From an uncultured Bacilli bacterium (GTDB lineage: Bacteria > Bacillota_I > Bacilli_A > RF39 > UBA660): a stretch of 64,000 nt of DNA. The translations under genes were made by a program, and so were the position numbers. The DNA lies in assembly GCA_934122395.1 (NCBI GenBank), contig CAKOWQ010000003.1, positions 186,299 through 250,298 of the forward strand, written 5' to 3'. The notes under the pieces are model-generated. The model was not told where the DNA came from and searched no databases. It saw only the letters and a program-made list of their open reading frames with translations. Below, in pieces: positions 5,984 through 62,869 of the stretch (the first letter of the stretch is position 1; the number at the start of each line of letters is the position of its first letter).

Positions 5984-6059
5984 AATTTTAAATATATAAT
6001 TTTTTTTAAAAATAGTTGAAATTTTAAAAAAGAAATTGTAAAATAATAAATATGTTAAA

Positions 6060-6262: not shown

Positions 6263-6279
6263 TTTTAGGGGGAAAATAA

Positions 6280-8197: not shown

Positions 8198-8227
8198 AAT
8201 TAGAAATGTAAGATGTTATTGGTTATA

Positions 8228-8250
8228 AAGACGAGATTTCGTCTTTTTTT
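8228..8250 (+). terminator. Rho-independent terminator after thrS
   Basis: AAGACGAGATTTCGTCTTTTTTT hairpin plus T tract. Confidence 0.7.
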
Positions 8251-8293
8251 AGTTTGTGGTATAATTTTGTTAGAAATATAGGTGTGATTAAAT

Positions 8294-16284: not shown

Positions 16285-16308
16285 GTGGTTGATTGTGGTG
16301 AAAAGTGG
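16285..16308 (+). promoter_or_regulatory. MraZ operator: three GTGG direct repeats at exact 10-bp spacing, just downstream of the mraZ promoter -10
   Basis: GTGG at 16285, 16295 and 16305; -35 TTTACA (16248-16253) and -10 region around 16271-16279. Confidence 0.7.
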
Positions 16309-16316
16309 GGGATTTT

Positions 16317-16760
16317 ATGTTAATAGGTGAATATCATCATAATATTGATGAAAAAGGACGAATTATTTTACCTTCTAAGTTCCGTGAAGACTTAGGAGAC
16401 GAATTTTTTGTAACACGTGGTCTTGAAGAATGCCTATTTGTCTATCCAAAAAATGAATGGGAAAAAATCACCAAAAAACTAAAATCACTACCTTTTACGA
16501 AGAAGGACGCTCGTAGTTTTACGAGATTCTTCCTTTCAGGCGCTACTGCAACAGTATTTGACAAACAAGGTCGAATCAATATTACCTCTCCATTGACCTC
16601 TTACGCCGGCTTGAAAAAAGAATGTGTAGTTGTCGGCGTAGGGGATCGCCTTGAAATTTGGGCTGAAGACAAATGGAATGATTTTTATGAGACTAATAAA
16701 GAAGAAATGTCAAATATTGCTGAAGATCTATTTGATTCAAATTGGGAATCGGGTGAATAG
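16317..16760 (+). CDS. mraZ: Transcriptional regulator MraZ
   Basis: MLIGEYHHNIDEKGRIILPSKFRE matches the MraZ N-terminus; duplicated DxxxR-like halves; start ATG 16317 with GGGGGA RBS (ORF-track start 16305 is a GTG inside the operator). Confidence 0.9.
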   Translation: MLIGEYHHNIDEKGRIILPSKFREDLGDEFFVTRGLEECLFVYPKNEWEKITKKLKSLPFTKKDARSFTRFFLSGATATVFDKQGRINITSPLTSYAGLKKECVVVGVGDRLEIWAEDKWNDFYETNKEEMSNIAEDLFDSNWESGE

Positions 16761-16762
16761 TT

Positions 16763-17686
16763 ATGCATGTTAGTGTTTTACTTGAAGAAGCAATCCAAGG
16801 TCTTAATTTGAAAGATGACGGTATCTACGTTGATTGTACATTAGGATATGCTGGACATTCCAGCGAAATTTTAAAGCGAGTAAGAAGGGGTTGTCTTTTC
16901 GCCTTTGACCAAGATAGTGATGCTATTAAGTATAGTAGGGAAAAGCTATCAAAGATAGGAGACAATTTTACTATTATATATAGTAACTTTGTTAATATTA
17001 AAGAAGAATTATTAAAAAGAGATGTCACTAAAGTAGATGGTATTTTATTTGATTTAGGTGTTTCATCAGTCCAATTAGATGAAGCAGATAGAGGCTTTAG
17101 TTATCATCAAGATGCACACTTAGATATGCGTATGGATAGAAATCAAACGTTATCTGCATATGGAGTTGTAAATAATTATGAAGAAACTAAATTAAGAGAT
17201 ATATTCTTTAAATATGGAGAAGAGAAATATTCTTCAAGCATTGCAAGAGCAATAGTAAAATATCGTGAAAACAAAAAAATAGAGACGACACTTGAATTAG
17301 TAGAAATAATTAAAAGTGCTATGCCTATGAAAGCCAAAAGAGATAAACATCCGGCTAGAAAAGTTTTCCAAGCAATAAGAATAGAAGTTAATCATGAGTT
17401 AGATATTTTGGATAAAGCAATTCGTGATTCACTTAGTCTATTAGATATAAATGGACGTCTTGCAATAATTACTTTCCATTCATTAGAAGATAGAATAGTA
17501 AAAAATATATTTAAAGAAGTTACACATATAGATGAAAGAGTAAAAGGACTGCCAAATATTCCGGAAGAATATTTAAGCAATTTTAAATTAGTAAATAACA
17601 AAGCAATAATTCCTAGTGATGCGGAACTTGATAATAATAATAGATCAAGAAGTGCTAAATTAAGAATAATAGAAAGAATAAGATAG
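16763..17686 (+). CDS. rsmH: 16S rRNA (cytosine1402-N4)-methyltransferase RsmH
   Basis: MraW/RsmH family signature (YVDCTLGYAGHS, FDLGVSSVQLD); follows mraZ. Confidence 0.9.
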   Translation: MHVSVLLEEAIQGLNLKDDGIYVDCTLGYAGHSSEILKRVRRGCLFAFDQDSDAIKYSREKLSKIGDNFTIIYSNFVNIKEELLKRDVTKVDGILFDLGVSSVQLDEADRGFSYHQDAHLDMRMDRNQTLSAYGVVNNYEETKLRDIFFKYGEEKYSSSIARAIVKYRENKKIETTLELVEIIKSAMPMKAKRDKHPARKVFQAIRIEVNHELDILDKAIRDSLSLLDINGRLAIITFHSLEDRIVKNIFKEVTHIDERVKGLPNIPEEYLSNFKLVNNKAIIPSDAELDNNNRSRSAKLRIIERIR

Positions 17687-17696
17687 GGTTGATAAC

Positions 17697-18008
17697 ATGA
17701 AAAAGAAAAAACGTATGAAAAAGATAGTTAGAATGGGAAAGTTTGAGAGACTTTTATATACTTTTACTATTGTCTTATTAGTAATTACACCTTTTGCTGT
17801 CGTTTTTTCTCAAGCAACTTTATCTAAGGTAAACTTCGATGTTGAAAAAGTAAAAAAGCAAATATCAACTCAAGAGAAGAAGAATGAATCTCTTGCTATG
17901 AAAGTTAATGAACTTGCTTCTCTTGATAATATTAAGACTGTTGCTGAGCAACAGGGATTGAGTTATAATAATAATAATATTAAATCAATTATTTCAAGTG
18001 ATGAATGA
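17697..18008 (+). CDS. ftsL: Cell division protein FtsL-like (single TM, coiled coil)
   Basis: 103 aa, basic N-terminus, one TM helix, coiled-coil tail; position between rsmH and the PBP gene. Confidence 0.65.
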   Translation: MKKKKRMKKIVRMGKFERLLYTFTIVLLVITPFAVVFSQATLSKVNFDVEKVKKQISTQEKKNESLAMKVNELASLDNIKTVAEQQGLSYNNNNIKSIISSDE

Positions 18009-18021
18009 TAGGTGAAAAAGT

Positions 18022-20163
18022 ATGAAGAAAAAGCTAGAAAATAATAATGTTAGAATAAGTTTATTCTTAGTTGTTATTGCTCTAGTTTTTTTTGTTTTGA
18101 TTATTGCAAGAACTGCTCAACTTGCTTTATCTAAGAAGATAGATGGAATTGATATACAGGAATTTGCTAGTAGTAGAACTACTAAAAATGAAATATTAAA
18201 GGGTAAAAGAGGTACTATTTATGATAAGAATGGAACTGCTCTTGCACAAAATGTTTCATCTTATACTTTAATAGCTTATTTATCATCATCTAGAACTACT
18301 GATATAAAACATCCTAAACATGTAGTTGATAAAGAATATACAGCAGAAATGTTGTCAACAGTACTTGATTTAAGTAAAGAACAATTATTACAGTATTTAT
18401 CGAAAGAAAATGTATATCAGACAGAGTTTGGTAGTAAGGGAAGAGGGTTAACTGAACTTACTAAAGATGCTATTCTAGCTTTAGGACTTCCTGGAATTGA
18501 TTTTATTGAAACACAAAAAAGATATTATCCTTATGGAGATTTTGCATCATATACTTTAGGTTATGCTAAAACTGAAATAACTGAAAAAGATGATGGAAGT
18601 AGTTCTGAAGCAATAGTAGGTGAAATGGGAATTGAAAAACAATTTGATGAAGAGTTAAAAGGAGAAGATGGTTATACTTTCTATCAAAAAGATAGAGCTG
18701 GTTATAAAATTGCTGGCACTAAAGAAGTAACGGTACCGGCTAAAGATGGTAAAGATGTATATTTAACGATCGATTCAAATATTCAATTGTTCCTGGAACG
18801 TGCTCTTGATAAGGCTGATTGGTATAATTTTGAATGGTCTACTATTCTAGTGGCAGATGCTAAGTCTGGTGCTATTCTAGCTTCATCTTCTAATCCGTCA
18901 TTTGATCCTAATTTAAGAAATATGACTAATTATATTAACTATAATACTAGTTATGCATATGAGCCAGGATCTACTATGAAAATATTCTCTTATATGGCAA
19001 CTATGGAAAATGGAAACTATAATGGTAGTGATACATATAAATCAGGTGTTTATGTAACAAAAGATGGTACTGAAATAGGCGATCATAATCGTAATGGTTG
19101 GGGAGAAATAACTTTTGATTATGGATTTACTTTATCTAGTAACGTAGCAGTTATTAACCTTATTAATAGATACATTAGTGGTGCAATATTAAAAACATAT
19201 TATAATAAACTTGGTTTTGGTTCTAAAACAGGAATAGAGCTACCAAATGAAGTTACAGGAAAAGTAGCTTTTAAATATGAAACGGAAATACTTAATGCTG
19301 GTTTTGGACAAGGGATTACTACAACTCCTATTCAAAATATTAAGGCACTTACTTCACTTACTAATAATGGAGTATTAATGCAACCATATATTGTTGATAA
19401 GATAGTTGATCCTGATACTAATGAAGTAGTATATCAAGGTGGTAAAAAAGAGCTTGATAAAGTTGCTAGTAAAGAGACTGTTGCTAAAATGAAAAATTTA
19501 ATGCGAACCGTTATAGAAGATCCTATGGGAACAGGTCATGGTTATTATATGGAAGGTTATGATTTAATAGCTAAAACAGGTACTGCACAGGTTGCTGATA
19601 AAAGTGGTTATGGTGGTAGTGTTATTCGTGGCTTTGCAGGACTATATCCAGGAAATGACCCTAGTATCATAATATATTATGCATCTAAAGATAATGGTTT
19701 AGGTGGTTTATATGCTATGAGAACAGTTATCAAGGATCTAATTGCAAATGTCAGTAAATATTTAGAACTAGATGGTAATAGTGTAGATAATACTACAGCT
19801 TTAAAGAATTATACAATGCCTTCTTTTATAAATAAAAATACTGTTGATGTTACAAATAAATTAACTAGTGAAGGATTAACTTATATAGTTATTGGTAATG
19901 GTAATAAAATAGTTAAACAATATCCAAGTGTTGATACTAAAGTATCTGAATTAGATAAAATTTTCTTAGTTACTAATGATAGTAATCTTGTTATGCCAAA
20001 TGTAATAGGTTATAGTATAAATGATGCTAAAGTTTTATTAAATCTATTAGGTATTAATCATTCTATAACTGGAAACGGTTATATAACTTCTCAAAGTATT
20101 GCATCAGGTGTAATTATAAAAAAAGAAGATATAGTCTCTTTAGAAGCTAATCCTAAGTTTTAA
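18022..20163 (+). CDS. Class B penicillin-binding protein (FtsI/PBP2B/SpoVD-like) with two C-terminal PASTA domains
   Basis: N-terminal TM; transpeptidase motifs (STMK-like S-T-M-K at GSTMKIF, SSN, KTGT); two PASTA repeats at the C-terminus. Confidence 0.85.
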   Translation: MKKKLENNNVRISLFLVVIALVFFVLIIARTAQLALSKKIDGIDIQEFASSRTTKNEILKGKRGTIYDKNGTALAQNVSSYTLIAYLSSSRTTDIKHPKHVVDKEYTAEMLSTVLDLSKEQLLQYLSKENVYQTEFGSKGRGLTELTKDAILALGLPGIDFIETQKRYYPYGDFASYTLGYAKTEITEKDDGSSSEAIVGEMGIEKQFDEELKGEDGYTFYQKDRAGYKIAGTKEVTVPAKDGKDVYLTIDSNIQLFLERALDKADWYNFEWSTILVADAKSGAILASSSNPSFDPNLRNMTNYINYNTSYAYEPGSTMKIFSYMATMENGNYNGSDTYKSGVYVTKDGTEIGDHNRNGWGEITFDYGFTLSSNVAVINLINRYISGAILKTYYNKLGFGSKTGIELPNEVTGKVAFKYETEILNAGFGQGITTTPIQNIKALTSLTNNGVLMQPYIVDKIVDPDTNEVVYQGGKKELDKVASKETVAKMKNLMRTVIEDPMGTGHGYYMEGYDLIAKTGTAQVADKSGYGGSVIRGFAGLYPGNDPSIIIYYASKDNGLGGLYAMRTVIKDLIANVSKYLELDGNSVDNTTALKNYTMPSFINKNTVDVTNKLTSEGLTYIVIGNGNKIVKQYPSVDTKVSELDKIFLVTNDSNLVMPNVIGYSINDAKVLLNLLGINHSITGNGYITSQSIASGVIIKKEDIVSLEANPKF

Positions 20164-25534: not shown

Positions 25535-25757
25535 TTTTATACCTAGATTCTAATAGAAATATAGAAATTGTTTTAACCATTTTAAAAAACTTTTCATTAG
25601 GCCTCCTTTATCCTTATAGAAAGTTAACAAACAAGTAACTTTCTATTTTTAATTTTACCATAGAAAAGGTAAAAGTCAACATTTTGTTAACTTCGGCGTT
25701 GCTTATTGCAAGTAATCGAATAAAGTGTTATTATATAGGAACAAATCGGGGGATTTT

Positions 25758-26927
25758 ATGAGTGAAGTAACTTTAAAAGATAAGAAAGAAGTTCTTGTTA
25801 TGGCAAGTAAAGAAGAAAGGAAAGCTAAAATTTGTAAGGCTCTTATGGAAGCTAATTTTAGTCTTGTGTTTGATATCGCAAATATTCATAATTATTATGA
25901 TCAAGATGAATTAATTTCGGTAGGAACTCAAGGGCTTGTGAAAGCTGCTAATAGTTATGATACTACTAGAAATACACTGTTTAGGAATTATGCTTCAAAA
26001 TGCATTAGTAATGAGATTAATAATTTTTTAAAAAAGGCAAGTATAAGAAATGAAAATGTAAGTTTAGAAACACCAGTACAAACTAGTTATGGTAGTAAAA
26101 GATTAAAAGATATTATAATAGATGATGATCCATTTCGTAAAATATTCGATGAAGATGTTCATGCTTCTATTAGAAGTGCAATTACTTTATTACCATCACC
26201 TGAACGTGAAATAGTACAAATGCGATTTGGTTTTATTGATAATAAAATATTTAGTTTAAGAGATATTGCTAGTAAACTTCATTTATCATATGGTTATGTA
26301 AGTGAACTCTTAAATAATGGCGTAGAACTTGCTGCTATAATACTATCTAAAAAAGGAATAATAGATTTGAATAAGGACGAATATACTCTAGTTCACGATA
26401 AAAAAGGAAAAGTAAGAGCAATAAAAAAAGATAAGTTGTCAATATATAAGTATTTTAGCGATTATAGTGAAGATGAAATTAATTATGCATTATCAACTTT
26501 GACTCAAAGTGAAAGAGGATTGTTACCAAGTGCTTGTGGTGAAGCAATTCCTAATGAAATGTCTGAATTTATATATATTAGTCGAAAATTAAAAAAACGA
26601 CTTGATGCTTTTAGAGAAAATAAAGGTGCTGGTGCTGATAGGTTAACTACTGATGACTATAAAGAAATAGTTGATATATTAAATGGTGATAATATGCCAA
26701 AAAGAATTCAGGCGTTGGAAGAAAGCGAAAAAATTGTGGCATTATTAAGTTTGGGGTATGTAAATGGGAAGTATTTTTCAAGTGAATTTGTTTCAGATAC
26801 TTTAGGTATTCCACAAGAACGCGTTTTGGAAATAATTGATAAAACTGAAGAATTTGCTAGACAAGAGAGAAAAGAAGAAATGGAAAAATATCTAACCGGA
26901 ATAAAAACCAAAAGCAAAAGACCTTGA
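25758..26927 (+). CDS. Sigma-70-family sigma factor with about 185-aa C-terminal extension containing additional region-4-like HTH segments
   Basis: Region 2 (FRNYASKCISNEINNFL) and region 4 (PEREIVQMRFGFIDNKIFSLRDIASKLHLSYGYVSEL). Then LSTLTQSERGLL... and LEESEKIVALLSLGYVNGKYFSSEFVSDTLGIPQERVLEI repeats. Start MSEVTL with GGGGGA RBS. Confidence 0.65.
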   Translation: MSEVTLKDKKEVLVMASKEERKAKICKALMEANFSLVFDIANIHNYYDQDELISVGTQGLVKAANSYDTTRNTLFRNYASKCISNEINNFLKKASIRNENVSLETPVQTSYGSKRLKDIIIDDDPFRKIFDEDVHASIRSAITLLPSPEREIVQMRFGFIDNKIFSLRDIASKLHLSYGYVSELLNNGVELAAIILSKKGIIDLNKDEYTLVHDKKGKVRAIKKDKLSIYKYFSDYSEDEINYALSTLTQSERGLLPSACGEAIPNEMSEFIYISRKLKKRLDAFRENKGAGADRLTTDDYKEIVDILNGDNMPKRIQALEESEKIVALLSLGYVNGKYFSSEFVSDTLGIPQERVLEIIDKTEEFARQERKEEMEKYLTGIKTKSKRP

Positions 26928-37119: not shown

Positions 37120-38400
37120 ATGAATAAGAAGATACTATTGATGTTTACTTTTTTATTTTCATTTTTCATGTTTAAAGATAATGTTTTCGCTGGTACCGTT
37201 CTAAAAGAGACTGATTATACTTTAGAATGTTTATATAGTGATGGAGGCCTTTATACCAATGAGTGGTCTAATGGAAGGGGAGCATATATAGTAAATCGTA
37301 CATCATATAATTTAACTGATGCTTCACAATCAGATACTAATAAAGGTGGAGATATGGTTTTTGTAAATACACCCGCTATTAGAGGTAGGACTAATCAACA
37401 ATACACAACATGTGCTTTAAAACTGTATTCTGCTGTGGTTCAAGGAAGTAATGATGCAGCAATGTCATATTTTAAATTCAATACCTCTTTTACTTGCAAT
37501 ACTTCTGATAATTCATGTCCTGAATTTGGCGTTGAAAAAAGTGGATGGTCAAAATTTTGGGGAACTGCTGGAGCTTTAAAAGAATATGCATCAGCTGCAG
37601 AAGCTGCTAATAATTCTCCTTATAATTTGATTTCTGAACGTTATTTATTTAGCAATAATATTCCGGAACCCAACAAGACTTTATATTATGTATTACCGGC
37701 TACTCAAAAAATAGGAACTAATATGTATGTAAAAATATATATTTACGACAATATCACTTTGTTAGATAAAGATGGGCGCATTACTAGATTAGATGGTGAT
37801 ACTAGTCTATTTTCTCAAACAACTTTGCCAGAAAAAATATATTTAAATTCCCCAGAGCCTATTCCAGTTACAGGAACTAATTCTGTTGTTTCTTATAAAT
37901 ATAATGCAGATCAAATAATTTATTCTTTTACAACTGCTTCAGATCCTACTCACACTATAGGATTTACAAATTCAACTGATAATCCACCTGATGATAGTGA
38001 TACAAGTAGTAGTTTATGTACTGAAAAATTAAAAAACACATCTCCTGTGTTGAAAAGTATCATTCAATTTGGTCAAATTTTACTTCCTGCGCTTGTTATT
38101 ATTTTAACAGGATTGGATATTGGAAAAATAGTTGTAACAGGTAATATCGAAGAAGAGTTACCTAAACGTAAGAAAACAATAATTAATAGAGCTATAGTAT
38201 TGTTAATTTTATTATTCTTACCTTTACTTGTTAAAGTTATGTTGAAGATAGTTAAGGATACTGGTAGTGATATTGCAAATAACATTGAATATATTGATTG
38301 TTTATTTGATTCTAGTGCTAAAGCAGGAACAGCTAAAAAAGGTTCAACAACAAAAAAATCAAATAATTCAAAAAATGAAAATGTTGCCGTAGAAAAGTAA
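37120..38400 (+). CDS. Secreted Cys-containing protein with two C-terminal TM helices and Lys/Ser-rich tail
   Basis: Signal peptide MNKKILLMFTFLFSFFMFKDNVFA; about 300-aa extracellular region with 8 Cys; C-terminal hydrophobic helices (ILLPALVIILTGL, AIVLLILLFLPLLV). Confidence 0.55.
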   Translation: MNKKILLMFTFLFSFFMFKDNVFAGTVLKETDYTLECLYSDGGLYTNEWSNGRGAYIVNRTSYNLTDASQSDTNKGGDMVFVNTPAIRGRTNQQYTTCALKLYSAVVQGSNDAAMSYFKFNTSFTCNTSDNSCPEFGVEKSGWSKFWGTAGALKEYASAAEAANNSPYNLISERYLFSNNIPEPNKTLYYVLPATQKIGTNMYVKIYIYDNITLLDKDGRITRLDGDTSLFSQTTLPEKIYLNSPEPIPVTGTNSVVSYKYNADQIIYSFTTASDPTHTIGFTNSTDNPPDDSDTSSSLCTEKLKNTSPVLKSIIQFGQILLPALVIILTGLDIGKIVVTGNIEEELPKRKKTIINRAIVLLILLFLPLLVKVMLKIVKDTGSDIANNIEYIDCLFDSSAKAGTAKKGSTTKKSNNSKNENVAVEK

Positions 38401-38442
38401 TACGGCAAAGAAAAGTAAGAAATTTAATATTGAGGTGATAGC

Positions 38443-40458
38443 ATGGTAGACTTTTTTGCGGCGGCTCAAAGAGTTATTTCAATGATTATGACTGGTACTG
38501 AGTTAGTGTTTATTGTATGGCTTACTTCTGGTGGCGTTATTTTTGTACTAAGAGGAATAAGCTTTTGGATAGATTGTACTATAGTAAAGTGCATTGGTGC
38601 AATTTATAGTTACTTTATGACATTATTAAATGGTACTATGTTTAACAAAACACTGGTTAATGCAGTTATGAAAAATGTATATATATTTATTGGAGTGTTT
38701 ATATTCTTTAGAGTAGCCATGCTTCTTATTAAATATATAATGAATCCGGAAATGGTTGCCGATCAGAAAGCCGGTGCTAATGCATTAATTAAAAGAGTAA
38801 TAATTGGTATGATGGGAATAATTTTTATACCAACTATATTTGATTATGGTTTAAAACTTCAATCTGCTGTAATTGAGGATCAACTGATTCAACAGTTATT
38901 TATTCCAAGTGATATGATAAAAGAGGTTGAAAAACAAACAACAAATGGAGGAAATGGAATAGGTACCACAATTTTTTCTGGTTTTATTAATCCTAGCTCC
39001 AAGGCGCCGGATAAAATTAAGAATGAATACAAGAAGGCCTTGGAACAGAAGGATTTATCATCTATAAATTTTAATAGCGGGGGATTCCTGGGAATAGGAT
39101 ACTCGAGTTATGATTATAGTTATTTTTACTTAATTTCGACCTTTGTTCTTGGATATGTATTGTATCTTATGCTTAAATATTGTTTAGATATAGTTGTCCG
39201 TTTCTTTAAGCTTTTTCTATTTCAATTAATTGCGCCAATTGCTATGGTGGAATATATGGCGAATGGTGCAGACGATGGCGTTTTCAAAAATTGGAAAAAT
39301 GCTGTTCTTGGTAGCTATTTGATGCTATTTACTAGAATTATGTCTATTTGGTTTGTCTTGTTTGTTATGACTTTGTTAAACGGCAATTTTCCTAATTATA
39401 GCAATGGGTCATTATTAGCTGAAAATGATTACTTATTAAAAGCCTTAATAATGATAGGATTGCTAGCATTTATGATGGATCTGCCTAAAATCATTGGTAG
39501 TATATTTGGCCTTGATCTAGAACAGGATTCATCTGCTACAGGTTTATTAAAATCATTTGGTGGTATGATCAAAGGTGTCGGATTAGGCGCTGTTTCTTTA
39601 GGCGGCGCAGCAGCAGCAGGTGGATTTAAAAGAATTCAGAATGCCGGTGGTGCTGCTAGTAAAATGCATGCCTTAAATCAACAAAAGAAGAGTGATATGG
39701 CAGCAGGAACATTTGATGCTGCTAAATATAATCAAAATAAGGCTGCTATAATGAAAGATTTCAAGACTGGAAAATCAAATGCTATGAGAGCTACAGGTGT
39801 TGGAATGCTTAAATCATTAGCTGGTAATAGTAAGATTGTTGGCGCTGCTTATAGTGGTGCTACTGGTGTTACAGAAGATATTAAAAAGAAAGAGGGTAAA
39901 GCTGAAGCTAAGGCACAAGCTGAGGAAGAAAGAGCTTATAGACAGCATCAAATAGAAGTTACTGATGAAATTAATACTAATACACATGTAATAGTTGGTC
40001 AGCAAGCTGTTGCTAATGTTAAACTTGATAATTTAGTAGACAATTCTGAACAAACATTGACTCAAACCGTTAATATTGATCATAAATTAGGCAATGTTAG
40101 TAATAATGTTGAAGCGATTGCTAAAAATACTGAAACTACAGCTCAACAAACAGTTAACATTGATCAGAAACTAGGAACAGTTAGTGGCAACGTTGAAGCA
40201 ATTGCTCAAAATACTGAGACTGCGGCTCAACATACTGTTAATGTTGATCAAAAATTAGGAAAAATTAGTGGTAAGATTGATACGATTGCAGATAATACAG
40301 AAATTTCTGCTGAACAATCAATTGATATAAATCAAAAAGTTGGTAACATTAGTGGCGATGTAAGTAATATTTCTGATAATACAGAATTAATAGGGGATGC
40401 TACTTTAAACATTGAACATAGCACTAGAGATGATGATAAAGAATCATTAAATAGTTAA
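38443..40458 (+). CDS. Polytopic membrane protein with C-terminal coiled-coil tandem repeats
   Basis: At least 7 predicted TM helices in residues 1-360; Gly/Ala-rich linker; C-terminal five or more 21-aa degenerate repeats (TVNIDQKLG-VSGNVEAIA-NTET-AQ). Confidence 0.55.
   Translation: MVDFFAAAQRVISMIMTGTELVFIVWLTSGGVIFVLRGISFWIDCTIVKCIGAIYSYFMTLLNGTMFNKTLVNAVMKNVYIFIGVFIFFRVAMLLIKYIMNPEMVADQKAGANALIKRVIIGMMGIIFIPTIFDYGLKLQSAVIEDQLIQQLFIPSDMIKEVEKQTTNGGNGIGTTIFSGFINPSSKAPDKIKNEYKKALEQKDLSSINFNSGGFLGIGYSSYDYSYFYLISTFVLGYVLYLMLKYCLDIVVRFFKLFLFQLIAPIAMVEYMANGADDGVFKNWKNAVLGSYLMLFTRIMSIWFVLFVMTLLNGNFPNYSNGSLLAENDYLLKALIMIGLLAFMMDLPKIIGSIFGLDLEQDSSATGLLKSFGGMIKGVGLGAVSLGGAAAAGGFKRIQNAGGAASKMHALNQQKKSDMAAGTFDAAKYNQNKAAIMKDFKTGKSNAMRATGVGMLKSLAGNSKIVGAAYSGATGVTEDIKKKEGKAEAKAQAEEERAYRQHQIEVTDEINTNTHVIVGQQAVANVKLDNLVDNSEQTLTQTVNIDHKLGNVSNNVEAIAKNTETTAQQTVNIDQKLGTVSGNVEAIAQNTETAAQHTVNVDQKLGKISGKIDTIADNTEISAEQSIDINQKVGNISGDVSNISDNTELIGDATLNIEHSTRDDDKESLNS
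40063..40400 (+). repeat. About 63-nt degenerate tandem repeat (about 5 copies) encoding 21-aa units inside the 38443-40458 gene
   Basis: Repeated ...ACnGTTAAyrTTGATCAraAATTAGGaAmaGTTAGTGGyAAyGTTGAAGCrATTGCnmAAAATACTGAaACTrCrGCTCAAcA... Confidence 0.6.
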
Positions 40459-43968: not shown

Positions 43969-43997
43969 GCATAGATATTATATCTATGCCTTTTTTT
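43969..43997. terminator. Bidirectional terminator between convergent mutM and the 43984-44502 gene
   Basis: GCATAGATATTATATCTATGC flanked by T tract (+) and A tract (that is, T tract on the - strand). Confidence 0.6.
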
Positions 43998-44502
43998 CAT
44001 ATAATCCTTCTATACTATATTCTTTTATTTTGCTAGATCTTCTAACTTTACTACTTTGATAGAAGTCTTGCATACTTGTTAGAGTTTTATTTATATTATC
44101 ATAACTTGTAGTGGATAGTTTTTTAACTACCAAGGTATGTGGGTCAGTATCCATTGTATTAAGATACAATTGAAGTAAAAATACTCTAGTTTGGTAACTA
44201 TCAAAAATACTATTTTGGGCTTTAGCAAAATCTAGACTAGCTACATTAGTACTTAATACTCTATTATCTACATTTAGTAAATAAAACTGTTTTAGTAAAA
44301 AGAAATAAATATTATTTTCGCTTATTAGGTTATTAGCAAAAAGAAGCTTAAATGCACCTTCATTTTTTAAAGCAAGTAATAATCTTTCTTCCCCATGAAG
44401 TTCTACTAAATTTCTGCATTTATCTTTGAAGCGACGTTCTTGTTCTGTTTCAACTTCCCACTTTATTATATCATTATTGAAATAAGACATTCCTATTACC
44501 AC
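43984..44502 (-). CDS. Hypothetical protein
   Basis: 172-aa ORF downstream of and co-directional with murD; no recognisable motif. Confidence 0.45.
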   Translation of the reverse strand: MVIGMSYFNNDIIKWEVETEQERRFKDKCRNLVELHGEERLLLALKNEGAFKLLFANNLISENNIYFFLLKQFYLLNVDNRVLSTNVASLDFAKAQNSIFDSYQTRVFLLQLYLNTMDTDPHTLVVKKLSTTSYDNINKTLTSMQDFYQSSKVRRSSKIKEYSIEGLYEKKA

Positions 44503-44551: not shown

Positions 44552-45913
44552 TTAGTTATTTTCTCTAACTAATTTTTTAAAAGCATTACCTTTTTCTTCA
44601 AAATTTTTAAAATATTCATAGCTGGCAGCAGCTGGTGACATTAAGCATATCATGCCTTTCTTAGTAACTAGTTTTGCCTTATCAACAGCTTCTTCCAACG
44701 TATCAACTAAGTAAATATTTTTGTTTGCTTTGGCATTGATTAAGATATTGGCAATTTTATGACCGGTACTAGGCATACATATTAAATTCTCAATGTCTGC
44801 TGTTTTTAAGTAATCAATAAATTCATTATAATTTATTCCACGATCAAGTCCCCCAAATATTAAAGTATTTACTTTTTTTAGTGCTTTAATTCCATTAACA
44901 GTTGCATCAGGTATTGTTGCTATAGCATCATTATAGTAAGTTACATCATTAAATGTTCCAACTAATTCTAATCGGTGTTCTAAAGGGGTAAAGTTGTTAA
45001 TAGCAGTTGTTGTTTTTGATAAGTCTAAATTTAATATTTCACTTAGGGTAAAGCACATCATAATATTGATTAAATTATGATCCCCAATAAGGTTTCTTTC
45101 TTCTTTTACATCATATATCTTTTTACTATTAACATAGATGAATTTATGATCACAATATGTTTCTATATCTTTAGTATCAAAATTAACCCTAAAAATATTG
45201 GAACATGGGTTTAATTTTTTTATTCGTGTATCTAATGCTTCACATCCATTATAGTATATCAATACGTCATCGCTAGTTTGATATCTTGTAATATTAAGTT
45301 TAGCGTGATAATAATCTTCTAATCCGTTAGTGTGATCTAAGTGATCTTCATAAAAATTTGTAATAAGAGAAATATGAGGAGAATTAGTTATAAACTCTAA
45401 TTGATGTGATGACATTTCTACTACTAGTAATGTATCACTTTCAATTTTATCAATATAATCGAAAATAGGCGTTCCTATATTTCCAAGTAAAAAACATTTC
45501 TTATTATTAGCTTTTAATATTTCATAAATTAATGATGAGGTAGTACTTTTTCCTTTAGTACCAGTAATACCTATAATATTTTTTCTGAAGTATTTTATCA
45601 ATATTTCAAGTTCAGATGAGATTTTATTTTTAATTTTTGATGTATCAATATCTCTAAAAGATATTCCTGGTGCTTTCATAATCAAGTCATATTCGTCTAG
45701 ATTGTCTAGATAATTTTCACCAGTTATAATAGTTGCATTCTTATCATCTTTTAATAATGATTCGTCTTTTATTTTGTCGTTTTTATCTTTTATTGTTAGA
45801 TTAATGTTTCCCAAATATTTTCTTATAAAAGAATAGGTTGATTTTCCCTCTTTACCAAATCCTAAAATAACTATTTTTTTATCTTTAAATTCATTAATTA
45901 TATCATTAATCAT
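44552..45913 (-). CDS. murD: UDP-N-acetylmuramoylalanine--D-glutamate ligase
   Basis: N-terminal Rossmann KIVILGFGKEGKS; Mur-ligase ATP motif GITGTKGKSTT; 453 aa. Confidence 0.85.
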   Translation of the reverse strand: MINDIINEFKDKKIVILGFGKEGKSTYSFIRKYLGNINLTIKDKNDKIKDESLLKDDKNATIITGENYLDNLDEYDLIMKAPGISFRDIDTSKIKNKISSELEILIKYFRKNIIGITGTKGKSTTSSLIYEILKANNKKCFLLGNIGTPIFDYIDKIESDTLLVVEMSSHQLEFITNSPHISLITNFYEDHLDHTNGLEDYYHAKLNITRYQTSDDVLIYYNGCEALDTRIKKLNPCSNIFRVNFDTKDIETYCDHKFIYVNSKKIYDVKEERNLIGDHNLINIMMCFTLSEILNLDLSKTTTAINNFTPLEHRLELVGTFNDVTYYNDAIATIPDATVNGIKALKKVNTLIFGGLDRGINYNEFIDYLKTADIENLICMPSTGHKIANILINAKANKNIYLVDTLEEAVDKAKLVTKKGMICLMSPAAASYEYFKNFEEKGNAFKKLVRENN

Positions 45914-47278
45914 TTAAATCATCTCCTTGTGTAATAGGTCAATATACTTAGTAGGAATATTATTTTCTATATTAAAGTGTTCTTCTAAATTATTGGTATA
46001 GAGTTTATAGTTATCTTTATAAAACTTTAATAAATAAGGAAGCTTTTCGCTTTTTTCTTCTAATCTAAGAATTGTCTTACTACAAGCAAATCTTACCTCA
46101 TCATATGTTCCTACACATTCAAATGGTTTATTTTTAGCATCTCCTAAGAGTTCTTTAAATGTTTCTAACATATCTTCTTTGTCTAATAAATTAGTTGAAA
46201 ATATATTTTGTAACGTATTAGTATCAATATATGGGCTTAGTATAATATATATAAATAAACACTTAGAACAATTACAACACCAGTTAGTTCCCGTTTTTTT
46301 ACTACTTAAATTACAACTTCTAAAAATGTTATAGTATTTAGGATATTTACTAAATATTTTTGCTATTTCAATTTCTAAAAGAGGTCTTAACAAACTAAAG
46401 TATTCTGTTTCTTTATTGAAATATTTATTGGTATAAATTCTAAAATCATTTTCAAATTCTAAGCTTTTAGAGTATTGATGGTTAACATTTGTTCCTTTGA
46501 CATTTCCTTCATTACTACTGTCTTCATTTGATACAATAATATATTTTTTGTTATTAAGATAAGCCATTATATATGCTGCAAAAGCTAATTGTGATGATAA
46601 TGGAACATGGCCATTTAAAAATCCTTCTTTATTTAGTTTAAGTAGGGTACTATCAATTTCAGATGTCAATATAACGATATCATCATCAGTATATCCTGCT
46701 TGATATATGGAATTATATGATGGCATGTTTTTTGGATAAATATTTCTTTCAAAAAGGAAACATAAATTATCATCTTTTTCTTCTTTTAAAATCTCCATTG
46801 AGACAATAGAATCTTTTCCACCACCAACTAGTATTAAATTGCCGCTAGGATTTAATTTAGGTATATTATGTTCTTTTTTATTACTCTTAACTATAAAGTT
46901 AGTAAACTCATCATAAGATAGGTCAATTTCATTACGATAAAAATATTCGCTTAATCCATTAAAGATCAATTTTTTAAAGAAAGATATTTGATCTTCATTT
47001 ATGTAATCTGCCTCGATAATAATTTCCTTTGGACAACTTAATTTGAAGTAATTAATAATATTTACTAATCCAAAATTAAAGAATAAATAATTTAAATAGT
47101 CTTCATCAATATCTTTGGTCTTAATATGTTCTTTATCAATATAAATACTAGGAGTAAAAGTATATTCACCAAGCATATATGTATATTTTACTTGGATGTT
47201 GGTATCATTATTTATAACTTCGTAACTTTTATATATTAACTTATTATATTTTTCTCTTAGTTCTTTGTAATTTGTCAT
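45914..47278 (-). CDS. PP-loop (adenine-nucleotide alpha-hydrolase) ATPase with C-terminal Cys cluster; uncharacterised; co-operonic with murD
   Basis: SGGxDS-type PP-loop LILVGGGKDS at about residue 150; CNLSSKKTGTNWCCNCSKC Cys cluster at about 320-340 plus FECVG; stop abuts the murD start (45913/45914). Confidence 0.6.
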   Translation of the reverse strand: MTNYKELREKYNKLIYKSYEVINNDTNIQVKYTYMLGEYTFTPSIYIDKEHIKTKDIDEDYLNYLFFNFGLVNIINYFKLSCPKEIIIEADYINEDQISFFKKLIFNGLSEYFYRNEIDLSYDEFTNFIVKSNKKEHNIPKLNPSGNLILVGGGKDSIVSMEILKEEKDDNLCFLFERNIYPKNMPSYNSIYQAGYTDDDIVILTSEIDSTLLKLNKEGFLNGHVPLSSQLAFAAYIMAYLNNKKYIIVSNEDSSNEGNVKGTNVNHQYSKSLEFENDFRIYTNKYFNKETEYFSLLRPLLEIEIAKIFSKYPKYYNIFRSCNLSSKKTGTNWCCNCSKCLFIYIILSPYIDTNTLQNIFSTNLLDKEDMLETFKELLGDAKNKPFECVGTYDEVRFACSKTILRLEEKSEKLPYLLKFYKDNYKLYTNNLEEHFNIENNIPTKYIDLLHKEMI

Positions 47279-47416
47279 AATTCCTCCTAATAAAAGGTAT
47301 TCATTTATATATCTAATTATATCACGAATGTAAACTTATATTAACTGAAATGACAAATAGTTGACATATTATTTAAAATGATAGTAAAATAATCTTATGA
47401 TAAGGGGTCGATGAAC

Positions 47417-47917
47417 ATGGGTGATAAGAATACCAAAAATGTAGTAATTGTTATGTTGCTTACCATTATTGTGGTAATGGTAACAGCTGTAGTGGTTTTA
47501 GCTCATAACAATGATATTTATAAACCAAAGCCAGAACATGGTAGATGGAATGTAGTATTTACAAGTATTGCTGAAGGTGAAAAAACTGGTAATGCTAAGA
47601 GCTTGTACTATCCTTATTACACAGCAACTTATGCTTCATTTTATGCAACTTTTGTAGCACCTGGTGACTCAATAGAGTATGATGTTCAAATATCTAATTT
47701 AGGGAATATTGATTCTAGATTAAGTAATATTGTCTATGTGACTAACCCGTATAAGGATGCTATCAAATATGAGATCGAAGGCATTAATAGAGGCGATATA
47801 TTAAAGGCGGGAGAAGTACGCAATATTAAAATAAAAATATCCTATGAGTTAACATCTACTGTAGCATATACTTTTGATAAGCCTATAGCTATATTATTTG
47901 ATTTTGTCCAAGCTTAG
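47417..47917 (+). CDS. TasA/camelysin-like (SipW-type signal peptide) small secreted protein
   Basis: N-terminal TM/signal; ATFVAPGDSIEYDVQISNLGNID resembles the TasA/CalY LKPGD...F.F.N.GSL core. Confidence 0.55.
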   Translation: MGDKNTKNVVIVMLLTIIVVMVTAVVVLAHNNDIYKPKPEHGRWNVVFTSIAEGEKTGNAKSLYYPYYTATYASFYATFVAPGDSIEYDVQISNLGNIDSRLSNIVYVTNPYKDAIKYEIEGINRGDILKAGEVRNIKIKISYELTSTVAYTFDKPIAILFDFVQA

Positions 47918-56021: not shown

Positions 56022-57059
56022 ATGAAATTAGAAGATTTTGATTATGATTTACCAGAAGAGTTGATTGCACAAACCCCATTAAAGGAAAGAGATTCTTCTA
56101 AATTATTAGTTTTAGATAAAGATACAGGTGAAGTGAGTCATTATCATTTTAAAGATATAATTAATTATTTGGATCGTGGTGATGCATTAGTTATTAATGA
56201 TACAAAAGTAATACCTGCAAGAATTATTGGTGAAAAAGAAGATACTAAGGCAGTTATTGAATTACTTTTATTAAAAAATATAGAAGGCGATACTTGGGAA
56301 TGTTTAGCACGACCTGCTAAAAGAGTAAAAGAAGGAACTATTATTAGTTTTGGTAATGGAAAGTTAAGAGCTAAATGTACTTTTATTGGTGAGGATGGAA
56401 TAAGACATGTTAACCTTATTTATGATGGTATTTTATATGAATTATTAGATGAATTAGGAACTATGCCACTACCGCCTTACATTCACGAACAACTAGAAGA
56501 TCAAAGTAGATATCAGACAGTGTATGCAAGATTAGAAGGAAGTGCAGCAGCTCCTACCGCAGGGCTTCATTTTACTAAAGAATTATTAGATGAAATTAAA
56601 GCTAAGGGCGTAAATATTGTTCCAGTAACACTACATGTTGGATTAGGTACTTTTAGACCTGTTAATGTTACTGATGTAGAAAAACATAAAATGCACAGTG
56701 AATTTTATTCTTTAAGTCAAAGTACAGTTGATATATTGAATAAAACTAAAGAAAATAACAAGAAAATAGTAGTAGTTGGTACTACTTCAGTAAGAGTATT
56801 AGAAACTGTTATGACAAAGTATGGCGAATTAAGAGAATGTAGTGGTTGGACAGATATTTTTATCTATCCAGGATATAAATTCAAAATAGTAGATAACTTA
56901 ATTACAAACTTCCATTTACCAAAGTCTACTTTGATTATGCTAATTAGCGCTTTAGCTGGACGTGATCATGTTTTAAGAGCATACAATGAAGCAGTAAAAA
57001 ACAAATATCGTTTTTTCTCTTTTGGAGATAGTATGTTTATTAAAAGTAGTAACAAATAA
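56022..57059 (+). CDS. queA: S-adenosylmethionine:tRNA ribosyltransferase-isomerase
   Basis: [18 protein letters not shown]-terminus, characteristic of QueA. Confidence 0.9.
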
Positions 57060-59856: not shown

Positions 59857-61638
59857 ATGTATAGTAGCAAGAAAAAAGTTGTAATAATAGTAATGTGCGT
59901 TATGATGATATTTATGGCTATTGGATATGCTGTACTATCAACAAATTTAAATATAAAAGGTACAAGTAATCTTACAGGTACTTGGGGTATTAGAATTGAT
60001 TCAATTACTAGTACTGCTACAGGTAGAGCTTATAATATTACCGATCCTACATATACTGATACTAATATGACATTTAATGTAGGAGTAAAGGAACCGGGAG
60101 ATAAGATGACTTTTGAGGTTGTACTTAAGAACTATGGTTCTATCGGAGCAATATTAGATGATATTGAAGCTAGTAGTAGTGGTAGTCCTTCAATTAATTA
60201 TAGTATTAGTGGCATTAAAAAAGGTGATAAATTAAGTGGGTATGCTAGTACTACTCTTACTATAGTGACAGAGTTTGATATTAATGCAACAGAACTACCT
60301 ACAGCAACTAATAAAACATTAAATATTAAATTATCATTTATTCAAGATGATGGTCAAACTATAACAGGAGATGATCCAACAATTGATGAGAAAGTTGTTA
60401 AAGTTTATGGAAAACCTGATACTATAGGAACTGAAATGCAAATAGGCAATGAAAAATTCTATGTAATATCAAGTAATTCTACTAAAGTTGTAGCTTTAGC
60501 TAAATATGGTTTGGATATAGTTACAGCTGATCCTAATGCGACTTACAAAGGAACTGGAAGGCAGGATAAAAAAATATTAACTTATTCAGAAGATGGGGTA
60601 TTATATGGTACACTTGCATTTACGAGTGATGATTTTTCGGCTTGTTCTAGTTATTGCACAAGTTATCCGTGTGATGCTTTTAATAGTTGTTCTGCTACAT
60701 ACACACCAGTTATGAATTATAAGACTTATTTAGAAAGTTTAGGTGCTCAAATATCAAAAGCTAGATTAATAACTTATGATGAATTAATTAATTTAGGTTG
60801 TACTGGCGATGTTGATAATAGTGGTAATTGTTCAAACGCACCATTTTGGACTCATGATATTTCATATTGGACAGGTACTTCTGGTAGTGAATATAGAGTA
60901 TGGGCAGTAAGTGCTCCATATAACATGTTTGTTAATGATGATTATGATGATAATCCTAGTGCACCTGGTACAACTTATGGAATTCGTCCAGTAATAGAAG
61001 TATTGAAGTCAAATATTGACTATATAGACTTGAAACCTAAAGCAAATGGAAATATTACAAAAGTTGGTACTGATATTCAAATAGGTGATGAACATTTCTA
61101 TGTAATATCTAGTGACTCATCTAAAGTAGTGGCTTTAGCTAAATATAATCTGGATATAAATAATGCACTTCATGTGTATAAAGGCACTGGAATACAAGAC
61201 GAACACGTAAGAGGTGCCGATTCTGATTCTACTACTACTGATTATGGCACTATAGCTTTTTCAACTACTAATTATTGGACTAGTACTTGTTCAAGTTATC
61301 CTTGTTATGTGTATAATAATAATTCTAACTTATATACACATGTTGAAGCATATAAGTCATATTTAAAAAATTTAGGTGTTTCAGTCACTAATGCTAGATT
61401 AATAAAAGCGGAAGAATTAACTGCATTGGGTTGTACAATTACTGGTGGATATATGAATTGTCAAAACAGTTCATACAATTGGATATATGAAACAGCTTAT
61501 TGGGCAGGTACGGCAGCAGAAAGTACTTTGTTAATAAATTCTAATCGCATTGGAAATTCTATCGTAGGAAGCTATACACATACTAATTATCTCGGCGTTC
61601 GTCCAATAATAGAAATACCTAGATCTGAATTTTCATAG
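59857..61638 (+). CDS. Secreted protein: TasA/camelysin-like N-terminal domain fused to two tandem about 230-aa Cys-containing repeat domains
   Basis: SipW-type signal region plus EPGDKMTFEVVLKNYGSIGAIL; internal duplication (KFYVISSNSTKVVALAKYGLDI / HFYVISSDSSKVVALAKYNLDI; LGCTG...C; YWTGT/YWAGT; GIRPVIE/GVRPIIE). Confidence 0.65.
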   Translation: MYSSKKKVVIIVMCVMMIFMAIGYAVLSTNLNIKGTSNLTGTWGIRIDSITSTATGRAYNITDPTYTDTNMTFNVGVKEPGDKMTFEVVLKNYGSIGAILDDIEASSSGSPSINYSISGIKKGDKLSGYASTTLTIVTEFDINATELPTATNKTLNIKLSFIQDDGQTITGDDPTIDEKVVKVYGKPDTIGTEMQIGNEKFYVISSNSTKVVALAKYGLDIVTADPNATYKGTGRQDKKILTYSEDGVLYGTLAFTSDDFSACSSYCTSYPCDAFNSCSATYTPVMNYKTYLESLGAQISKARLITYDELINLGCTGDVDNSGNCSNAPFWTHDISYWTGTSGSEYRVWAVSAPYNMFVNDDYDDNPSAPGTTYGIRPVIEVLKSNIDYIDLKPKANGNITKVGTDIQIGDEHFYVISSDSSKVVALAKYNLDINNALHVYKGTGIQDEHVRGADSDSTTTDYGTIAFSTTNYWTSTCSSYPCYVYNNNSNLYTHVEAYKSYLKNLGVSVTNARLIKAEELTALGCTITGGYMNCQNSSYNWIYETAYWAGTAAESTLLINSNRIGNSIVGSYTHTNYLGVRPIIEIPRSEFS

Positions 61639-61723: not shown

Positions 61724-62869
61724 ATGAAGATACTTAGATATATTGATAAGTGGTTATTATTAATTACTACTATTTTATTTGTAATAGGACTAGTTATGGT
61801 ATTTTCTGCATCTAACGTAGCTTCCTTTATGAGATATAAGGCGAGTCCTTATCATTTTATAATAAGACAATCTATCTTTTTGCTAGTGGGAATTATTATC
61901 TCGTTAATTGCTATTAGATTTTCTACTAAAGTATATGGGTTTGTTTCTTGGCCGGGACTTATTGCTATTACAATAGTTTTAGCTTTAGTTTTAGCTTATG
62001 GTAAAATAGCTGGTGGTGCTTCTTCTTGGATTCAATTAGGTCCTTTTAGATTCCAACCTAGTGAATTTGCTAAAGTCATTATGATAGCATGGATGGCAAG
62101 TTTTTATGATATAAATAAAAATAGTTTAAATAGATATTCAACAGCTTTGTTTCCATTACTTATATGTGGTATTATTGTGGTTTTATTAATGCTAGAACCG
62201 GACTTGGGTACTGCTATAATATTTGCGGGAATTGTAACTTTTATATTTATGATTGTACCGATAGATTTAAAAATAAAAGTGCGAACTGTTTTGATTGTAT
62301 TAGTAATTGGTCTTTTAGGCGTTGCTATTTTAATTGGTAATGGTAAGAATTTATTTTTCCATCACCAAATTCAAAGGTTAGATTTTTCAAACCCTTGTAG
62401 TGAATCTAAATTCTATAAAGAAGGTAACCAGGTTTGTAATGGGTATATTGCTATAAACAATGGAGGACTTTTTGGAAAAGGACTTGGTAATAGTACTCAA
62501 AAATATTTGTATTTACCTGATTCACACACAGACTTCATTTTCCCAATTGTTGTTGAAGAATTAGGATTGTTATTTGGAGCCTTTGTAATTTTATTATATA
62601 TATTCTTGTTAGCTCGTATTTTTATAATAGCTCATAATAGTACTAATAATAGAAATGCTATCATGTGTTATGGTGTTGCTTTTTATATTTTCTTACATGT
62701 TGTAGTTAACTTAATGGGTGTTCTTGGAATGATGCCAATGACAGGAGTACCGCTTCCATTCTTAAGTTATGGAGGAAGTTTTACTATATGTTTGATTGTA
62801 GCTCTTACTATGGTTCAAAGAGTAGCAATAGAAAATAATACAAAAAATCTTTCAAAAAATAAAGGATAA
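61724..62869 (+). CDS. ftsW: SEDS-family peptidoglycan glycosyltransferase (FtsW/RodA/SpoVE)
   Basis: 10-TM SEDS topology, conserved PDSHTDFIF and GG...G motifs; promoter TTGTAT-N17-TGTGGTATAAT upstream. Confidence 0.85.
   Translation: MKILRYIDKWLLLITTILFVIGLVMVFSASNVASFMRYKASPYHFIIRQSIFLLVGIIISLIAIRFSTKVYGFVSWPGLIAITIVLALVLAYGKIAGGASSWIQLGPFRFQPSEFAKVIMIAWMASFYDINKNSLNRYSTALFPLLICGIIVVLLMLEPDLGTAIIFAGIVTFIFMIVPIDLKIKVRTVLIVLVIGLLGVAILIGNGKNLFFHHQIQRLDFSNPCSESKFYKEGNQVCNGYIAINNGGLFGKGLGNSTQKYLYLPDSHTDFIFPIVVEELGLLFGAFVILLYIFLLARIFIIAHNSTNNRNAIMCYGVAFYIFLHVVVNLMGVLGMMPMTGVPLPFLSYGGSFTICLIVALTMVQRVAIENNTKNLSKNKG

Follow-up and report, generated by a model that had tools for sequence, protein, structure and literature searches.

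An alternative route to the D-glutamate (D-Glu) of peptidoglycan, formed by the epimerase MurL (XOO_1319) and the ligase MurD2 (XOO_1320), was discovered in Xanthomonas oryzae (Feng et al. 2017; reviewed in PMC8788868 and PMC5808125). The ligation of L-glutamate (L-Glu) by MurD2 is established for XOO_1320 as well as for its orthologues in Micromonospora and Salinispora, and XOO_1319 turns the terminal L-Glu into D-Glu in a reaction that consumes one ATP, forms AMP and runs from L to D only (PMC8788868). The discoverers, who described MurL as a protein without any known domain, reported AMP formation and proposed an adenylate intermediate (PMC8788868, PMC5808125). In the published cases the MurD2/MurL pathway substitutes for MurI (PMC8788868), and its published distribution covers Gamma- and Alphaproteobacteria and rare actinobacteria (PMC8788868, PMC5808125). 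The pathway is thus already known, and it is curated in NCBIfam and Pfam. Here we analyzed a 64,000-nucleotide stretch of DNA from an uncultured low-G+C gut Bacilli bacterium (contig CAKOWQ010000003.1, positions 186,299 to 250,298; hereafter the window), a host outside the published distribution lists, and compared one of its gene pairs with this system. We conclude, with a probability of roughly 0.8, that the two genes are murL and murD2 and form a two-gene operon that provides an alternative route to peptidoglycan D-Glu; the pair is most likely the gut-Bacilli copy of the described MurD2/MurL pair.

Like the X. oryzae unit, the window pair consists of a MurD-family ligase and a MurL of about 450 amino acids (aa) that matches the curated MurL model significantly. 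Both open reading frames (ORFs) were found where the initial annotation had placed them (Table 1), and the two genes indeed abut. As read from the sequence, the junction is AAGGAGATGATT-TAA-ATG, that is, AAGGAG-N6-TAA/ATG with zero intergenic bases, the murL stop codon (45916-45914) touching the murD2 start codon (45913-45911). A near-identical locus is present on three syntenic human-gut metagenome contigs of the same species, ERZ27287344 k141_1252908, ERZ28613846 scaffold_1900 and the Hadza contig NODE_1836, which encode a 98%-identical protein (P0002); no recorded protein is identical to that of the window.

The 454-aa protein, which had been called uncharacterised, belongs to the known MurL family, for which curated NCBIfam and Pfam models exist. 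Against NCBIfam it gave a single match, NF041275 "MurL_Xanthmoales" (E 8.7e-64, 215.6 bits), whose curated name is UDP-N-acetyl-alpha-D-muramoyl-L-alanyl-L-glutamate epimerase; residues 71-405 aligned with model positions 66-396 of 447. P0002 is annotated with the Pfam domains PF26299 (MurL_N) and PF26298 (MurL_epimerase_C), both domains are precomputed on all MurL homologues that we found in a collection of 5.8 billion proteins, and JGI labels several of these homologues with the same epimerase name. The window protein itself had zero Pfam matches at E<=1 in a Pfam copy that held neither the PF26298 nor the PF26299 model. The family is large, with 2513 representatives of 50%-identity clusters found at E<=1e-3, of which 1061 remain at E<=1e-30, and a search seeded with a high-G+C MurL representative yielded Bacteroidota-type homologues. 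Here and below, X. oryzae is compared through the NCBIfam model and through residue equivalences taken from the literature.

We next consider the linkage of MurL to MurD. Scanning one genome from each species gave at least 597 confirmed relatives, and the best 80 loci, encoding proteins 38-50% identical to the window protein, were analyzed. These metagenome-assembled genomes (MAGs) are labelled Bacilli, Erysipelotrichaceae, Tenericutes/Mycoplasmatota, Clostridia, Oscillospiraceae, Ruminiclostridium, Saccharibacteria/Nanosyncoccaceae and, in a few cases, Bacteroidota. A MurD homologue lies downstream of MurL on the same strand in 77 of the 80 loci, within ~170 nucleotides in 76; as for the exceptions, the contigs of L059 and L080 end 0.05-0.7 kb from MurL, and in L032 alone 6 kb of sequence follow that contain no MurD. 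Of the 150 top-ranking cluster representatives, 34 have lengths of 800-1250 aa, and 33 of these are MurL fused to a MurD-type part, in either order, the remaining one being MurL with a MurC/E-like ligase part. The coupling to MurD proposed in the initial annotation is therefore conserved across 77 of 80 genomes and 33 fusions, and this conserved linkage refutes the other option offered there, a transfer RNA (tRNA)-modification gene hitch-hiking in the operon.

The fusions include both MurL-MurD and MurD-MurL arrangements (examples among P0133, P0136, P0163, P0169, P0185, P0215 and P0244); P0185 is a MurC/E-like ligase (PF01225 N-domain) joined to MurL, and P0169 is MurL-MurD-peptidase M20. Adjacent murL-murD2 genes also occur in Saccharibacteria/Nanosyncoccaceae MAGs of the candidate phyla radiation (L002, L007, L019, L020, L026, L030 and L047), with 40-46% identity to the window protein. 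Saccharibacteria are outside the published MurL/MurD2 distribution lists.

The partner ligase scored 334 bits against TIGR01087 (cut-off 212) and has MurD-like_N, Mur_ligase_M and Mur_ligase_C domains. We aligned it to solved MurDs and to Escherichia coli MurD, whose structure numbering is used for positions below. It shares the three-domain fold of canonical MurD and keeps the catalytic residues K115, N138, E157, H183, K198 and R302, but differs in having Ile in place of Lys319 and of Asn322. We then compared 77 MurL-linked MurDs, 33 MurL-fused ligase domains and 120 canonical-type Bacilli MurDs; the latter controls are homologues that share 56-96% identity with the second MurD of locus L029 (described below), and the one member inspected has no MurL neighbor.

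Position 319 is Lys in all 120 canonical MurDs; it is Ile331 in the window ligase, Ile in 72 and Leu in 4 of the MurL-linked ligases (1 gapped), and Ile or Leu, once Ala, in the fused domains. Similarly, Asn322 is found in 120 of 120 canonical MurDs, and the corresponding residue is Ile334 in the window ligase and mostly Ile in both the linked and the fused sets. At position 182 the window ligase has Asp190, the linked set has Glu (59) or Asp (18), the fused set Glu (30) or Asp (3), and the canonical set Thr, Ala or Val. Position 416, a Leu in E. coli, is Tyr432 in the window ligase, Tyr in 74 of the 77 linked ligases, Tyr or Phe in the fused domains and Trp in all 120 canonical MurDs. Arg occupies position 348 (Lys in E. 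coli) in the window ligase (Arg358), in every linked and fused ligase (77/77 and 33/33) and in 119 of the 120 canonical MurDs, so this residue is not discriminating within Firmicutes. The discriminating residues in Firmicutes are an acidic residue at 182, Ile or Leu at 319, Ile, Val or Thr at 322, and Tyr or Phe at 416, and at each of these four positions the window ligase has the MurD2-type state. The signature derived here, a change from D-S-K-A-T-N to D-x-[IL]-[AS]-T-[IVT], is present in the window ligase. These residues, common to MurL-linked and MurL-fused ligases, bear out the specialised Mur-ligase paralogue that the initial annotation had suggested.

The described X. oryzae MurD2 pattern is Glu197/Arg358/Pro433/Phe435 (PMC8788868). 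Pro414 is present in 7 of the 33 fused domains, and 5 of those 7 also have Phe416; together with Glu182 and Arg348, these five domains reproduce the full X. oryzae pattern. The window ligase, compared here by sequence alone, has Arg at the Arg358 position, an acidic residue at Glu197 and an aromatic residue at Phe435, but carries Asp for Glu197 and Ala for Pro433. L-Glu acceptance was gained in a selected K330T variant of Streptococcus mutans MurD and in a K319T variant made of E. coli MurD by the Dairi group (PMC8788868). The natural loss of Lys319 in MurL-linked MurDs fits both results, and the Lys319-to-Ile/Leu signature agrees with the independent K319T result in E. coli. As a putative marker of MurD2-type ligases, the loss of Lys319 and Asn322 goes beyond the published literature as searched.

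The initial annotation had read the 454-aa protein as a PP-loop adenylating enzyme with an SGGxDS-type motif. The PP-loop is present, at LILVGGGKDS (residues 147-157), in the variant form GGGKDS, in which the first Ser is Gly; this form occurs in 255 of 270 homologues and SGGKDS in 6. Residue conservation was assessed over 104 representatives of 50%-identity clusters in two alignments. In the loop, G153-G154-K155-D156 show no variation and S157 reaches 97% conservation; elsewhere G223-H224, P226, N266-H267-Q268, K271, E276, S295, S321, N323 and K339 are invariant and R298 is 99% conserved. The PP-loop and the Cys cluster described below both lie far beyond chance.

An AlphaFold2 model of MurL built from 84 sequences had a predicted local distance difference test (pLDDT) of 93.8 and a predicted TM-score (pTM) of 0.93, and it placed GGGKDS at the classic PP-loop position, after the first strand and before the first helix. 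In a Foldseek search of the PDB, the top match to this model was QueC (2pg3; E 3.4e-4, probability 1.00, TM-score 0.66 normalised to QueC, 236 columns), followed by QatC (9y02_B; E 4e-4, 411 columns) and then by TtuA, NMN/NAD synthetases, LarE and ThiI. When a profile of the MurL family was run against 177,635 PDB sequences, only five matches were returned, all of them PP-loop enzymes aligned at the GGGKDS loop (TtuA, with its SGGKDS aligned, E 0.0031; MnmA, E 0.7-0.9), and the single window protein gave zero matches against the PDB sequences. The hidden Markov model search that had been proposed as a check was nearly negative: beyond the lack of a Pfam match noted above, PF06508 (QueC) was touched by only 8 of 84 MurL members at E<=1 (best E 0.087) and not by the window protein. 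Similarly, hhalign of the MurL family with E. coli QueC gave a probability of 3.4% over a 30-column loop match, with GGGKDS over SGGQDS. The predicted fold, together with the fact that the sole PDB profile matches are PP-loop ATP pyrophosphatases, upholds the earlier proposal, and on modelled structure and motif geometry the prediction that MurL is a PP-loop/QueC-like adenylating enzyme is well supported. Within the open literature, with subscription papers outside the search, we found no later structural or mechanistic work on MurL beyond the Dairi-group reviews, and the assignment of MurL to this fold goes beyond the published literature as searched.

Most PP-loop enzymes, such as QueC, NAD synthetase, asparagine synthetase and TtuA, adenylate their substrate and then amidate or thiolate it. 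QueC (7-cyano-7-deazaguanine synthase; E. coli b0444), which adenylates a carboxylate, is the best structural match to MurL and has its PP-loop after the first strand as well. In contrast to QueC, MurL has Gly for the first loop Ser, adds an N-terminal domain of 135 residues and, at its C-terminus, a helical extension that bears Cys388, and carries out its reaction without a nitrogen donor; sequence similarity between the two is at noise level. LarE and TtuA share the PP-loop fold with MurL and hand their adenylated substrates to a cysteine or to Fe-S-bound sulfur, and LarE, in which an active-site Cys attacks an adenylated carboxylate, provides a precedent. Unlike these enzymes, MurL inserts no sulfur, and a thioester at Cys388 would be hypothetical. 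QatC, from the QatABCD anti-phage system, is aligned over 411 columns and so may share with MurL the extra N-terminal part as well as the QueC-like core; it differs in its low TM-score (0.39) and identity (11%), in its gene context and in having no link to a Mur ligase.

That QueC and QatC are the top structural matches, and that queA lies elsewhere in the window (56022-57059), could be taken to mean that the protein is an unrelated QueC/TtuA-type tRNA or queuosine enzyme, or a QatC-like defence protein, which merely happens to sit beside murD. We consider this extremely unlikely, in view of the MurD adjacency in 77 of 80 genomes, which range over MAGs with Bacilli, Clostridia and Saccharibacteria labels, and of the 33 fusions. 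In addition, no QatA/B/D or TGT-like partner is found nearby, and the protein matches the MurL model and leaves the QueC Pfam model unmatched at E<=1. Both candidates were rejected, as the linkage data contradict them.

A family of unknown function, PF19932 (DUF6395), was weakly matched by 73 of the 84 MurL homologues of alignment A2 (best E 3.7e-6) and not by the window protein. These matches suggest a kinship between DUF6395 and MurL, and DUF6395 may also be a PP-loop enzyme.

Downstream of the PP-loop, MurL has a four-Cys cluster, C322-x11-C334-x2-C337-x2-C340, with the sequence CNLSSKKTGTNWCCNCSKC at residues 322-340. C334, C337 and C340 are invariant among the 104 representatives and C322 is 99% conserved. 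The cluster lies 170-183 residues past the PP-loop. In E. coli QueC the pattern is C188-x8-C197-x2-C200-x2-C203, 179-189 residues past SGGQDS, which is similar in spacing and position, and these four cysteines form the zinc site of that enzyme. The initial annotation had recognised this QueC/TtuA-like pattern. It had included the second Cys of its "CC", C335, which is not conserved (Gly in 50 of 104), and had left unmentioned a fifth invariant Cys, C388, which stands in a KPFECVGT motif with K384 (99%) and P385 (98%). An Fe-S thiolase reading was rejected because the published MurL needs only ATP and Mg and because the QueC-like Cys spacing would point to zinc.

The N-terminal region, previously described as having no recognisable motif, is the Pfam MurL_N domain, as judged from the 98%-identical protein. 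Its Y77, K79, G108 and N116 are invariant, and C82 is 86% conserved. Modelled alone with AlphaFold, it had a pLDDT of 93.7 and showed a sheet of four strands, then helices and another two strands. Against the PDB this model gave zero matches at E<=1e-3 and only weak matches of RNase H-like topology.

Taken together with the known pathway, these features suggest how the pair may work. The window MurD2-type ligase would first join L-Glu, not D-Glu, onto UDP-MurNAc-L-Ala; the window MurL would then use ATP to flip the terminal L-Glu to D-Glu on the nucleotide-peptide. In contrast to canonical MurD and MurI, chirality would be fixed only once Glu has been ligated and is part of the nucleotide-peptide, and a second ATP would be spent. 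From the fold and the conservation, the last two-thirds of MurL are predicted to form a QueC-like PP-loop ATP pyrophosphatase domain, and its GGGKDS loop is predicted to hold the beta and gamma phosphates of ATP while the alpha-carboxylate of L-Glu is adenylated and pyrophosphate released. The four-Cys cluster would shape the active site as in QueC, and MurL_N probably supplies a binding surface for the UDP-MurNAc-peptide. The activated C-alpha proton would be removed and returned from the opposite face by conserved acid/base residues, either on the acyl-adenylate or after transfer to Cys388 as a thioester, following the LarE precedent; Cys388 is the leading candidate for the base or the thioester carrier. 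Hydrolysis would then yield the D-product and AMP, which would make the reaction one-way. Oxazolones of activated N-acyl amino acids racemise easily in classical peptide chemistry. In a variant of the scheme, the activated N-acyl-glutamate would close to an oxazolone, racemise and be opened stereoselectively.

The same fold could instead serve a modification of the precursor, for example amidation of the Glu alpha-carboxylate to iso-glutamine, beside an ordinary D-Glu-adding MurD. Amidation and thiolation are usual for the PP-loop enzymes that MurL resembles in fold, and the window ligase keeps Asp at E. coli Asp182 and scores over the TIGR01087 cut-off for MurD. However, the window protein shows strong homology (E 8.7e-64) to the MurL clade that biochemistry has defined, and the invariant residues are family-wide; the operon holds no gene for a glutaminase or ammonia-donor partner; and the ligase, which groups with the MurL-fused ligases, has neither the Lys319 nor the Asn322 that all 120 canonical Bacilli MurDs share. 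Moreover, the iso-glutamine of Firmicutes is known to be made by MurT/GatD on lipid II (PMC6085368). We regard such a modification as quite unlikely. The precursor modification put forward in the initial annotation is retained as to its target, the glutamate of a peptidoglycan precursor, and changes in kind, from amidation or thiolation of D-Glu to a predicted epimerisation of L-Glu to D-Glu.

Several points weigh against a functional MurD2/MurL pair in the window. The window protein is far under the NF041275 equivalog cut-off of 700 bits, as a member of a distant clade would be expected to be, so that orthology is argued from linkage and conserved residues; the L029 homologue is likewise under it (248.6 bits). 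This cut-off was built on Xanthomonadales and is hence clade-specific, and so it limits the claim of an exact equivalog by model, not membership of the MurL family. The ATP/Mg-dependent one-way epimerisation has been described only for enzymes from X. oryzae, Micromonospora and Salinispora (PMC8788868), which are of other clades than the window protein. The window ligase has Asp190, not Glu, at the X. oryzae 197 position, and an E197D change in X. oryzae MurD2 shifted its preference towards D-Glu (PMC8788868). Links from MurL to PP-loop families by sequence only are marginal, Cys388 is a candidate catalytic thiol, and its role, like the metal site, is deduced from conservation and spacing. Finally, at L029 (positions 3497-8686, uncultured Bacilli MGBC103251) a canonical-type MurD (DSKSTN; TIGR01087 392 bits) lies 1.1 kb upstream of murL-murD2 (DTIATI), so the MurD2/MurL route need not be the sole route in a genome.

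The L029 arrangement also favors the view that the pair acts as a back-up, redundant or conditional, beside canonical MurD and MurI, or serves a side product. Within the 64-kb window, however, there is no second Mur ligase, the MurI motifs DSGxGG and GCTH[YF] are absent from all frames, and the start of the dcw cluster is without murD; in addition, the published pathway replaces MurI (PMC8788868). We consider a back-up role unlikely, and it bears on physiology, not on enzyme identity. Of the 44 window ORFs that were scanned, none belongs to a family of racemases or class IV aminotransferases; for 7 further ORFs the Pfam families were read off the near-identical contig, and the housekeeping genes polA, fpg, dnaG, rpoD and topA were named by eye or from that contig. 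A stretch of 64 kb carries little weight for the genome as a whole. The statement that murD is detached from the dcw cluster holds within the window: the truncated plus-strand cluster start, mraZ-rsmH-ftsL-class B penicillin-binding protein gene (16305-20163; whole segment 16305-22287), is followed by two U32 peptidase/TrhP-like genes in place of murE-mraY-murD-ftsW. A lone FtsW/RodA-family gene lies at 61724-62869.

Table 1. Features of the murL-murD2 locus, in window coordinates
Feature	Positions	Strand	Basis or remark
murL-type ORF, 454 aa	45914-47278	minus	NF041275 match; MurL Pfam domains on 98%-identical P0002
MurL_N domain, residues 1-135	46874-47278	minus	Pfam MurL_N on P0002
PP-loop motif GGGKDS, residues 152-157	46808-46825	minus	between strand 147-150 and helix 155-163
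Four-Cys cluster C322-x11-C334-x2-C337-x2-C340	46259-46315	minus	zinc-ribbon-like; putative metal site
KPFECVGT motif with Cys388	46106-46129	minus	candidate catalytic thiol
MurD-family ligase gene (murD2-type), 453 aa	44552-45913	minus	TIGR01087, Mur_ligase_M and Mur_ligase_C, signature residues
YEDHLD, ligase residues 188-193	45335-45352	minus	Asp190 = E. coli Asp182 = X. oryzae MurD2 Glu197
NDAIATI, ligase residues 328-334	44912-44932	minus	in place of canonical NDSK[AS]TN; Ile331 = E. coli Lys319, Ile334 = E. coli Asn322
GGLDRG, ligase residues 354-359	44837-44854	minus	Arg358 = E. coli Lys348 = X. oryzae MurD2 Arg358
murD2 ribosome-binding site AAGGAG	45923-45928	minus	within 3' end of murL; sequence read
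murL ribosome-binding site AGGAGG	47283-47288	minus	sequence read
Promoter-like site TTAATA-17-TATAAT, extended TG (TGnTATAAT), upstream of murL	47316-47344	minus	consensus match only
orf172 downstream of murD2, 172 aa (168 aa from ATG)	43984-44502	minus	no family match; possibly co-transcribed
Hairpin terminator between converging orf172 and fpg	43969-43989	.	sequence

The number of promoter-like sites in the region does not exceed the shuffled expectation, that is, there is no excess. We rejected orf172 as a member of the conserved murL-murD2 unit because its conservation is confined to the same species. Divergent from murL on its upstream side is a gene for a 168-aa signal-anchored protein (47411-47917), whose N-terminal region is paralogous to the 593-aa ORF at 59857-61638 (27% identity, E 1e-13); its family matches are only weak and CARDB/DUF7507-like.

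Elsewhere in the window, a radical-SAM (S-adenosylmethionine) protein gene (1217-2092) overlaps that of a 345-aa class II LysRS-core/EpmA-like protein (2089-3126), and an ORF without family match and a SAM methyltransferase follow; the whole segment (1217-5474) resembles a cassette for EF-P-lysylation-like or other aminoacyl modification. At 37120-40458 lie two large ORFs, of 426 and 671 aa, that have no Pfam family; the 671-aa protein is membrane-rich with several repeats of ~27 residues (VNIDxKLGxVSxNVEAIAxNTE...) at its C-terminal end and is kept in same-species contigs. A 400-aa sigma-70 family protein (25725-26927) has a SigE/SigK-like N-terminal half and a C-terminal extension of ~200 residues without family match.

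For the family as a whole, we lean slightly towards a claim made of three parts held jointly. First, MurL would be an adenylating enzyme with a QueC-type PP-loop and zinc ribbon, to which an N-terminal domain has been added, with Cys388 as base or thioester carrier. Second, MurD2/MurL would be a widespread route to D-Glu in uncultured gut Bacilli, Clostridia and Saccharibacteria rather than something rare, limited to Xanthomonadales and a few actinobacteria; the abundance of MurL/MurD2 in these uncultured groups goes beyond the published literature as searched. Third, the loss of Lys319 and Asn322 would tell MurD2-type ligases from D-Glu ligases, and many database annotations as "MurD (D-glutamate ligase)" would therefore be wrong. 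The "murD equivalog" model TIGR01087 scores MurD2-type ligases well over its cut-off of 212 (334 bits for the window ligase, 311 for that of L029), so automatic annotation calls them D-glutamate ligases. At this locus it would give a "hypothetical protein" and a "D-glutamate ligase", and the second name is probably wrong here and in many genomes.

The one-way epimerisation that turns ATP into AMP has lacked an explanation; the PP-loop/QueC-like fold would provide its first concrete structural frame and points to residues K155, D156, S157, the four-Cys site, C388, H224, H267 and K271. The MurL/MurD2 pathway has been advocated as a narrow-spectrum target that is restricted to Xanthomonas and Stenotrophomonas, a premise that its wide presence in gut Firmicutes and Saccharibacteria, if true, would weaken. 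The main value of the finding is the correction and extension of a known pathway.

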